Virus record (IMG/VR): IMGVR_UViG_2877263951_000003
Origin: a virus
Taxonomy: Duplodnaviria > Heunggongvirae > Uroviricota > Caudoviricetes
Reading direction: 5' to 3' (one strand)
DNA: 62,478 bases
The notes under the pieces were generated by a model. That model made no database searches, was not told the DNA's origin, and saw only the letters and a list, made by a program, of their open reading frames with translations. The number at the start of each line of letters is the position of its first letter. The stretch's first letter is position 1. Of the stretch, positions 28,123 through 28,433 are shown one piece after another. Both the position numbers and the translations under genes were made by a program.

Positions 28123-28199
28123 GGCCCTTTAGCTCAGTTGGTCAGAGCGAGCGACTCATAATCGCCAGGTCGCTGGTTCAAGTCCAGCAAGGGCCACCA
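28123..28199 (+). tRNA. tRNA-Ile2-like (anticodon CAT; Met-type anticodon, Ile2 by similarity to ileX/ileZ)
   Basis: Cloverleaf: acceptor GGCCCTT/AAGGGCC, D-stem GCTC/GAGC, anticodon loop CTCATAA, T-stem GCTGG/CCAGC, encoded CCA. Confidence 0.8.
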
Positions 28200-28200
28200 A

Positions 28201-28277
28201 CCACCACTAGCTCATCCGGATAGAGCATCAACCTTCTAAGTTGACGGTGCGAGGTTCGAGTCCTCGGTGGTGGGCCA
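28201..28277 (+). tRNA. tRNA-Arg (anticodon TCT)
   Basis: Acceptor CCACCAC/GTGGTGG, anticodon stem TCAAC/GTTGA, loop CTTCTAA, T-loop TTCGAGT, encoded CCA. Confidence 0.75.
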
Positions 28278-28279
28278 GC

Positions 28280-28355
28280 GCCGACTTAGCTCAGCAGGCA
28301 GAGCAACTGACTTGTAATCAGTAGGTCACCAGTTCGATTCCGGTAGTCGGCACCA
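28280..28355 (+). tRNA. tRNA-Thr (anticodon TGT), thrU-like
   Basis: Acceptor GCCGACT/AGTCGGC, anticodon stem ACTGA/TCAGT, loop CTTGTAA, T-loop TTCGATT, encoded CCA. Confidence 0.8.
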
Positions 28356-28358
28356 TAT

Positions 28359-28433
28359 GCGGGCATCGTATAATGGCTATTACCTCAGCCTTCCAAGCTG
28401 ATGATGCGGGTTCGATTCCCGCTGCCCGCTCCA
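28359..28433 (+). tRNA. tRNA-Gly (anticodon TCC), glyT-like
   Basis: GCGGGCATCGTATAATGGCTATTACCTCAGCCTTCCAAGCTGATGATGCGGGTTCGATTCCCGCTGCCCGCTCCA; matches E. coli glyT as recalled. Confidence 0.8.

Follow-up and report, generated by a model that had tools for sequence, protein, structure and literature searches.

Clusters of tRNA genes downstream of the late antiterminator gene Q are already known from Stx phages. In 933W-type Stx phages (e.g., AP012530), an ileZ-argN-argO cluster lies downstream of Q and the terminator tR', on the late-operon strand. We analyzed an array of four tRNA genes at the same place in a 62,478-nucleotide (nt) stretch of viral DNA (Caudoviricetes; IMG/VR record IMGVR_UViG_2877263951_000003), which is referred to here, at its full length, as the window. 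The array as such is ordinary and is annotated in hundreds of RefSeq genomes. It shares with the Stx-phage cluster the promoter (TTGCAA, 17 nt, TATTAT, 9 nt), a first gene that is approximately 96% identical to ileZ, and an argN scaffold in second position after a 1-nt spacer. However, the Stx-phage argN has the anticodon UCG, whereas the argN-type gene of the window has UCU; the third Stx-phage gene is argO, in place of which the window has Thr(UGU)-Gly(UCC), with the argO scaffold absent; and the Stx-phage cluster is followed by stx, whereas the array of the window has no stx after it but a structured leader that extends directly to the holin gene.

Other described systems resemble the locus in part. 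The thrU-tyrU-glyT-thrT-tufB operon of Escherichia coli has similar mature Thr and Gly bodies (74 of 76 and 75 of 75 nt identical, respectively), but 209 nt separate thrU from glyT, compared with 3 nt (TAT) in the window, and the promoter and context are different. The anti-PARIS and anti-Old tRNAs of lytic phages (T5 tRNA-Lys, -Thr, and -Asn; Thr6 and Thr21 against P2-Old) are resembled by the Thr gene of the window in that it has the anticodon (UGU) of the targeted host tRNA and a U16C change of the type that impairs cleavage of tRNA-Lys by AriB, and sister alleles share U42-C43 with T5 tRNA-Thr, whereas the anticodon arm in the window is that of the sensitive thrU. Phage morons consist of a promoter and a terminator around cargo that is dispensable for virions; the unit in the window resembles them with its putative promoter and its terminator, which is strong in relatives, and it occupies the stx slot of Stx phages. 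Morons, however, carry protein genes, whereas the cargo here consists of tRNAs and a structured leader, and the terminator has decayed in this copy. The small RNAs (sRNAs) PasA and PasC of enteropathogenic E. coli (EPEC) also lie just ahead of a class II holin-lysozyme operon, but on the opposite strand and with no similarity to the leader. Like 3'ETS-leuZ, the leader comes straight after the final tRNA gene and has a terminator at its end, but the leader core also occurs without tRNAs. PasA, PasC, and 3'ETS-leuZ are sRNAs, whereas the leader is known here from its sequence, and neither release nor Hfq binding is implied by the comparison. In the literature searched, we found no description of the Thr-Gly pair or of its host identity and nothing relevant on ileZ, argN, and argO or on thrU and glyT in prophages.

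With moderate confidence, we interpret positions 28085 to 28665 of the window as a self-contained tRNA transcription unit (i.e., a "moron") within the late operon, with a role in codon supply.

Composition and ancestry of the tRNA array

Across the whole window, ARAGORN called exactly four tRNA genes, all of which are on the + strand and contiguous. Loci used for comparison are cited by L numbers; L001 is the locus of E. coli CFSAN029787, and its coordinates are converted to window coordinates by adding 7899. The array and its promoter are composed as follows:

28085..28113, + strand: putative sigma-70 promoter (-35 TTGCAG at 28085-28090, 17-nt spacer, -10 TATTAT at 28108-28113)
28123..28199, + strand: tRNA-Ile2, anticodon CAU, predicted lysidine type, ileZ lineage (ARAGORN, Rfam tRNA model)
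28201..28277, + strand: tRNA-Arg (UCU), phage argN scaffold (ARAGORN, Rfam tRNA model)
28280..28355, + strand: tRNA-Thr (UGU), matching host thrU at all positions but two in the D loop (U16C and U20C)
28359..28433, + strand: tRNA-Gly (UCC), identical to host glyT at 75 of 75 nt

Against a gathering score of 29, the Rfam tRNA model gave 70.5 bits for Ile2, 56.4 for Arg, 69.8 for Thr, and 64.9 for Gly (E-values, 1e-9 to 1e-13). The genes are separated by spacers of 1, 2, and 3 nt, and all four encode CCA. The RefSeq annotation (PGAP) of the identical sequence in CFSAN029787 lists tRNA-Ile, -Arg, -Thr, and -Gly, with the flanking genes named "antiterminator Q family protein" and "class II holin." The initial annotation of the window had proposed this very cluster (Ile2-CAU, Arg-UCU, Thr-UGU, and Gly-UCC at 28123 to 28433) and had placed it between Q/tR' and the lysis cassette. 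ARAGORN, Rfam, and PGAP agree with the four calls, both ARAGORN and the Rfam model accepted the Thr and Gly candidates that had been singled out for checking, and the flanking open reading frames (ORFs) and the CFSAN029787 annotation agree with the placement.

The array appears to have a conserved sigma-70 promoter of its own, which had been overlooked. The putative -10 hexamer is separated from the first tRNA by a 9-nt G+C-rich discriminator; a promoter scan placed the site at 28084 to 28113, i.e., with an offset of one base. Among 52 distinct contexts upstream of homologous arrays (Stx2 phages among them), 48 had TATTAT or TATCAT 8 to 10 nt before +1 and TTGCAA or TTGCAG at 17 nt. The hexamers were 69 to 74% identical in pairwise comparisons, compared with 33 to 47% for the surrounding bases. 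With such a promoter, the tRNAs could be made without Q and hence also in the lysogen.

The first two genes are related to those of Stx phages. The CAU tRNA differs from K-12 ileX at 7 of 77 alignment columns (approximately 91% identity) and from the Stx2-phage ileZ (AP012530) at 3 positions (approximately 96% identity). Its anticodon loop is identical, a change in the 6-67 pair is compensated, and C4-G69 and C5-G68, which we take to be TilS determinants, are kept. These features point to an Ile2-type tRNA on an ileX/ileY-like body; PGAP names it tRNA-Ile. The Arg (UCU) gene differs from the host argU at 26 of 77 positions (approximately 66% identity). Its scaffold is common to the Stx2 argN (UCG) and to the "Lys" (UUU) gene of APEC O1/PPompW and is unlike that of argO; relative to argN, the acceptor, D, and T arms are the same, and the anticodon is UCU rather than UCG. 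Both genes are thus of the lambdoid or Stx-phage kind, as the initial annotation had recognized. It was right about the type of the Arg gene, although it missed the argN scaffold with its switched anticodon.

The last two genes are of host type. Gly (UCC) matches K-12 glyT at 75 of 75 nt, and Thr (UGU) matches K-12 thrU at 74 of 76, with U16C and U20C in the D loop as the sole differences; the resemblance to thrU and glyT, which the initial annotation had put forward, is therefore real. The Thr homologs of APEC O1, phage 689R5, and the Stx2f phage phi467 match thrU at 76 of 76 nt, which indicates that the ancestral Thr was an exact copy of thrU. Judging from these alignments, the ancestor of Thr-TAT-Gly did not differ by a single base from enterobacterial thrU and glyT, and the array is a mosaic of a phage-lineage pair (Ile2 and the argN-type gene) and a host-type pair (Thr and Gly).

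The proposal that part of a chromosomal tRNA operon had been captured holds for the host-type bodies but not for the operon order, the spacers, or the flanks. In K-12, the order is thrU, 8 nt, tyrU, 116 nt, glyT, 6 nt, and thrT, between coaA and tufB, whereas the phage order is Thr-TAT-Gly and only the mature tRNA bodies are in common with the host. The spacers of the array are GC, TAT, and GTCAGAG, compared with TGAT.., TCAAGTCC, ..CAGGAT, and AGATGT in K-12. The four tRNA calls and the spacer comparison revealed no tyrU, thrT (Thr GGU), host spacer, or host flank in the window, and the alignment to thrU-tyrU-glyT-thrT yielded no contiguous piece of the operon.

The Thr-Gly dimer recurs in different surroundings. 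In phi467 it stands after stx2f, with neither Ile2 nor Arg present, and in APEC O1 after Ile2-Lys; in Citrobacter braakii it has another downstream sequence and a Thr with U16C only. Across these contexts, Thr-TAT-Gly travels as a fixed unit. Thr-Gly and the leader described below were present in 516 of 5,426 complete E. coli genomes, and the dimer was also found in Citrobacter, Enterobacter, and Shigella.

We considered E. coli as the donor and dropped this assignment. In Photobacterium sagamiensis JAMM2327 (L192:575-950), the order Ser(UGA)-Thr(UGU)-Gly(UCC)-Asn(GUU) is found in a chromosomal operon that has a promoter and a terminator of its own. The Thr and Gly genes of this operon match E. 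coli thrU and glyT at 75 of 76 and 75 of 75 nt, respectively, and are adjacent, with an 8-nt spacer ending in TAT. Given such near-identical genes, Thr and Gly are too conserved to name the donor. The dimer may have originated by precise deletion of tyrU or by capture from an operon in which Thr and Gly were already adjacent. The locus would offer a clean case of host tRNA bodies entering a phage operon without host flank, followed by slot exchange and anticodon switching.

Variation in related arrays was observed at several positions. The argN-lineage scaffold (C1-G72 start) carries three anticodons, i.e., UCU in the window (28201-28277), UCG in Stx2 phages, and UUU in APEC O1/PPompW (comparison with L005:1615-1691, L012:2595-2671, and L013:1595-1670). 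The UUU version has a C at the near-universal U33 and a discriminator changed from G to U. In an HK639-like clade (IMG/VR loci L044, L018, L113, L179, L028, L051, L181, L135, L140, and L141), the tRNA in the second slot has intact acceptor, D, and T arms and a hypervariable anticodon loop, with 5 to 6 nt between the stems. Three of these alleles differ by the loop alone (TAAAT, TTTAT, and TTAAT, for which ARAGORN gives the anticodons AAA, UUA [ochre], and UAA).

The Gly slot varies as well. A gene named "tRNA-Val(UAC)" by PGAP in L003:1758-1908 (FDAARGOS_943), L004:1770-1920 (RMDEC332), and L126 is built on the glyT scaffold, from which it departs by C35A and A38G, by the loss of 1 nt from the 3' strand of the acceptor stem, and by CAA in place of CCA. 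In every case this gene adjoins a Thr allele with G42U/U43C, and it could represent either decay or a re-targeted tRNA. In HK639 (L011:1401-1560; 44363-44520), tRNA-Asn(GUU) is followed by a chimeric Gly that is absent from the record's annotation. This gene is identical to glyT from the anticodon loop on, but its 5' half is unrelated, and the acceptor stem cannot form.

Structured leader between the array and the holin gene

Downstream of tRNA-Gly are two inverted repeats with arms of 11 bp (28440-28450/28475-28485) and 14 bp (28493-28506/28552-28565), both 100% complementary. The initial annotation had reported two long inverted repeats after the cluster, in a range (28443..28562) that proved a few bases tight. 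The repeats are real, and they form part of a larger conserved leader that includes a third hairpin and a terminator remnant, neither of which had been noted:

28440..28485, + strand: hairpin H1, 11-bp outer stem and inner GGG/CCC hairpin (fold, -22.5 kcal/mol; z = -4.2)
28493..28565, + strand: hairpin H2, 14-bp outer stem and inner hairpin TTTTTGCA/TGCAGAAA (fold, -24.4 kcal/mol; z = -3.4)
28566..28616, + strand: hairpin H3, 7-bp stem (28566-28572/28610-28616) with the conserved GGGTGGTTTGTTGGAT in the loop (minimum-free-energy fold)
28641..28665, + strand: terminator remnant, GCCCGC-TTTT-GCGtt followed by a T run (aligns to the annotated terminator of HK639)

The 230 nt after tRNA-Gly folded into three hairpins with a minimum free energy of -69.8 kcal/mol (z = -3.3). 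Scanning IMG/VR with two conserved words identified about 175 loci, and many of their leaders were just 72 to 82% identical to that of the window. In an alignment of 34 diverse leader sequences, 95.2% of the cells were paired, compared with at most 51% when the 3' partners were slid, and 15 of the 48 pairs had changed on both sides. Such changes were found at 4 pairs of H1, at 4 outer pairs and 1 inner pair of H2, and at 5 of the 7 pairs of H3. The covariation score was 0.227, whereas slid controls reached at most 0.084 and shuffles at most 0.148 (0 of 500 shuffles attained the observed score). Because the covariation is mostly between two clades, it reflects few independent events. On this evidence, the approximately 230-nt leader appears to be a conserved, structured, uncharacterized RNA element.

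H1 is missing in L036, L053, L052, L028, L076, and L038, in which the Gly tRNA is followed directly by H2. The leader is not a strict tRNA trailer, as the H2-H3 core is also found upstream of lysozyme genes without tRNAs (L080 and L095). With H1 optional and the core independent of tRNAs, we view the leader as a conserved late-leader RNA element. It does not travel with the holin gene; the region upstream of essD in the K-12 prophage DLP12 is unrelated save for the last approximately 16 nt. That the leader encodes a protein is improbable as well, since the only ORF is a 59-amino-acid (aa) GTG frame and 1- and 2-nt indels occur throughout the between-clade alignment. A search of 28434 to 28725 against Rfam 15 gave no match at E <= 1, which rules out a known Rfam family. 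The best BLAST hit to PasA, PasC, and their intergenic regions was 14 nt long (E = 0.05), and those RNAs lie on the opposite strand; the leader is thus neither PasA nor PasC. By eye, the inner part of H1 (CTGCGATGATGGGAAATCCCGG; 28436-28490) resembles a variable loop and T arm of the glyT type (CTGATGATGCGGGTTCGATTCCCGC; 28398-28433), and H1 may be a decayed tRNA fragment.

The terminator at the end of the leader differs in strength between copies. It is intact in relatives and annotated in HK639, and its stability is -11.5 kcal/mol in APEC O1, compared with -3.3 kcal/mol in the window, where it is weakened by a GG-to-TT change (GCGGG to GCGTT). In the window copy, transcription from the tRNA promoter may therefore continue into the holin gene. 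The most economical guess is that this terminator insulates the lysis genes from the tRNA promoter.

Upstream of the lysis genes, the leader occupies the place of regulatory sRNAs or stx in other prophages. A preprint reads the frequent tRNA matches near PasA/PasC as remnants of phage integration sites (bioRxiv 10.64898/2026.05.13.724894); by contrast, the holin-adjacent tRNAs examined here are full-length genes with a putative promoter.

Codon supply and alternative roles of the array

The four tRNAs read ATA, AGA, ACA, and GGA (Gly also GGG), which are the rare A-ending codons of their families. A codon-usage comparison with the host had been suggested by the initial annotation, and its outcome was positive. 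In the CFSAN029787 prophage, in which the array is 100% identical, these codons were enriched 2 to 8 times relative to 42 K-12 genes. The odds ratios were 4.2 (ATA), 8.0 (AGA), 3.9 (ACA), and 3.1 (GGA) for early prophage genes and 2.0, 4.8, 2.0, and 2.4, respectively, for late prophage genes (all P < 0.01). Given this enrichment, which agrees with the classical account of why phages carry tRNAs, the supply of minor tRNAs is the best-supported role of the array. In addition, where argO, a UCU reader, has been replaced by Thr-Gly, the argN-type gene carries UCU, so that an AGA reader is kept. The structure of the tRNAs is kept by compensation in relatives (Gly G5U/C67A; Thr A5G/U68C; the slot-2 acceptor; and the L158 anticodon stem), which points to purifying selection on tRNA structure.

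If the array supplies codon readers in this way, RNA polymerase would start approximately 2 to 3 nt upstream of tRNA-Ile2, from the array promoter in the lysogen, and after Q antitermination the array would be transcribed from pR' as well. The tightly packed precursor would be processed by RNase P and 3' exonucleases into four mature tRNAs, and the boost in four minor isoacceptors would permit efficient translation of phage genes rich in their codons. The Thr-Gly pair would have taken the place that argO has in Stx phages, with AGA reading kept by a UCG-to-UCU anticodon change in the argN-type gene. Normally, the leader terminator would keep constitutive transcription of the tRNAs out of the lysis genes, and Q-modified polymerase would read through this terminator.

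Several points weigh against codon supply. Early genes are more strongly enriched than the late genes beside the array, ATA enrichment is not significant in the terminase-to-tail block, and the comparison covers one prophage and one 50-kb host sample. The promoter is deduced from conservation and not from transcripts. The prophage is riddled with insertion sequences (ISs) and is probably defective, so a benefit to phage growth may no longer apply here. Finally, codon supply explains neither why Thr has changed only at D-loop positions 16 and 20 nor the anticodon-stem changes in some alleles.

Counter-defense is a possible alternative, although we regard it as clearly less probable than codon supply. 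The array, above all Thr(UGU), would replace or outlast host tRNAs that are cut by Toprim tRNases (PARIS AriB and P2 Old) during lambdoid infection, with U16C and U20C reducing recognition. P2-Old blocks lambda by cutting the host tRNA-Thr(UGU), thrU, at paired CNG motifs of the anticodon stem; its toxicity is rescued by phage tRNA-Thr(UGU) variants with an altered CNG and a shorter stem, whereas overexpressed host thrU gives "little to no protection," and tRNA-Val(UAC) is also cut (PMC12445682). PARIS AriB cleaves three tRNAs, Lys(UUU), Thr(UGU), and Asn(GUU), and does so at U36AAUC|A41; U16C in tRNA-Lys "significantly impaired AriB cleavage" (PMC12409363). Both systems have a target with the anticodon of the window copy (PMC12445682, PMC12409363), and this copy differs from thrU at U16C and U20C only. 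The array family as a whole includes Lys(UUU), Thr(UGU), and Asn(GUU; HK639 and L091), and the AriB site UAAUC|A is missing from the Lys(UUU) gene of the second slot.

The Thr alleles of related prophages bear on both sides of this question. U16C is the most recurrent Thr substitution (5 alleles). Of 137 collected prophage Thr copies, 89 are identical to thrU, 16 have U16C/U20C (the window type), 4 add G42U/U43C, and 1 is the L158 allele. The addition of G42U/U43C opens two pairs, shortens the stem, and abolishes the 3' CNG, and the allele has the U42-C43 of T5 tRNA-Thr. L158 restores both pairs by A27G and C28A (compensated changes A27G/U43C and C28A/G42U), with the loss of both CNG motifs. 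An altered CNG with a shortened stem, i.e., the published recipe for Old resistance, is accordingly found in the FDAARGOS_943, RMDEC332, L126, and L052 alleles and in part in L158. We had initially read G42U/U43C as plain decay and revised this reading in view of the L158 compensation, the T5 U42-C43, and that recipe; decay is nevertheless possible, as the neighboring Gly-derived "Val" is damaged.

The 89 copies identical to thrU argue against counter-defense because extra host thrU is little protective (PMC12445682). The anticodon arm of the window copy (27-43) is also that of thrU, with both CNG motifs, positions 39 to 41 (where resistance to AriB would call for changes), and U36AAUC|A41 intact, and Gly is the host gene. 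The effect of U16C is known from tRNA-Lys rather than from tRNA-Thr, and T5 tRNA-Thr keeps U16. Few tRNA positions are under weaker constraint than D-loop positions 16 and 20, so that neutral drift strikes there first, and owing to common descent the alleles do not count as independent events.

In its most developed form, which we likewise consider unlikely, the counter-defense explanation holds that lambdoid phages are evolving a thrU-type Thr(UGU) stepwise to nuclease resistance (thrU, U16C, U16C/U20C, the addition of G42U/U43C, and compensated A27G/C28A) and that the array, with its anticodon-switching argN gene and its structured RNA, is a mobile anti-tRNase kit and not a codon aid. If true, lambdoid phages would have picked up the tRNA on whose destruction both P2-lambda interference and PARIS immunity depend. 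The array places in lambdoid phages a thrU-type form of the Thr(UGU) that P2-Old and PARIS attack, and the graded allele series offers a testable model of temperate-phage escape from tRNA-cleaving defenses.

It is considerably less probable that the array is an inert passenger, i.e., the leftovers of a dead prophage, unexpressed, useless to phage and host, and intact through recent acquisition. Several IS copies do break the prophage, the leader terminator has decayed in the window copy, and relatives are damaged (the acceptor deletion and CCA-to-CAA change of the Gly-derived "Val" and the half-replaced Gly of HK639). However, all four genes score as canonical tRNAs, an 821-nt region around the array is 100% identical in 7 complete E. 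coli genomes and 99.8% identical in an eighth, the compensatory changes in relatives amount to selection on structure, and the promoter hexamers are conserved while their flanks have diverged.

Despite the sequence identity to thrU and glyT and the preprint that takes tRNA matches near prophage sRNAs as integration-site remnants (bioRxiv 10.64898/2026.05.13.724894), native chromosomal thrU/glyT copies (the case in which the initial annotation would have been wrong) or tRNA fragments left at an attachment site are ruled out for practical purposes, since the array is flanked by Q and the holin gene rather than by coaA and tufB, tyrU and thrT are missing from the window, the genes are full length and lie in a mid-prophage late operon approximately 15 kb from the integrase, and nearly all genomes have a separate match to the native locus.

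Prophage context

The genes and terminator on either side of the unit are those of a lambdoid late region:

27543..27923, + strand: late antiterminator Q gene, 126 aa (ORF; CFSAN029787 annotation of the identical sequence)
28010..28037, + strand: tR'-like intrinsic terminator, AAACCCGCC-TCCG-GGCGGGTTT followed by a T run (perfect 9-bp inverted repeat, G+C)
28726..28941, + strand: class II holin, at the head of the lysis cassette (ORF; CFSAN029787 annotation)
28945..29574, + strand: 209-aa ORF of the lysis cassette (ORF)
29640..30173, + strand: lysozyme (ORF; annotation)
30170..30637, + strand: Rz-type lysis protein (ORF; annotation)

A simple terminator scan gave no match, the tR' hairpin included, probably because the T run was partly counted into the stem; the hairpin was confirmed by folding instead (-18.5 kcal/mol; z = -3.8).

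The CFSAN029787 copy sits in a lambdoid prophage integrated beside mlrA/yehV, with the array in the late operon, mid-prophage and approximately 15 kb from the integrase. None of the complete E. coli genomes reached 80% coverage of a 10-kb stretch around the array. Positions 24715 to 29007 of the window matched "E. coli" ECMA0423 at 100%, and positions 24715 to 30570 matched Shigella flexneri SFBU1023 at 99.8%. The window contains near-identical IS copies at 2611-3874, 5560-6814, 16910-18148, 18777-20031, 31020-32283, 34139-35388, and 36530-37613; these comprise a 1264-bp IS600-like element, an approximately 1250-bp element, and fragments, and one IS breaks the prophage just past the lysis cassette. 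The IS load, together with the Shigella-type matches, indicates a degraded prophage, probably defective, in a Shigella-type chromosome.

Rfam searches of the window also returned other RNA elements. An ALIL frameshift pseudoknot was found at 36078-36194. The isrK and C4 antisense RNA pair occurs twice (58 to 76 bits), at 8348-8536 on the - strand and at 22793-22981 on the + strand, i.e., in opposite orientation and approximately 14 kb apart, which suggests that the prophage immunity/anti-Q region is present twice or that an inversion has taken place. At 15641-15816 on the + strand, the match was to a full-length sok antitoxin RNA (RF01794; 117 bits), which implies that the prophage region has a toxin locus of the hok/sok type.

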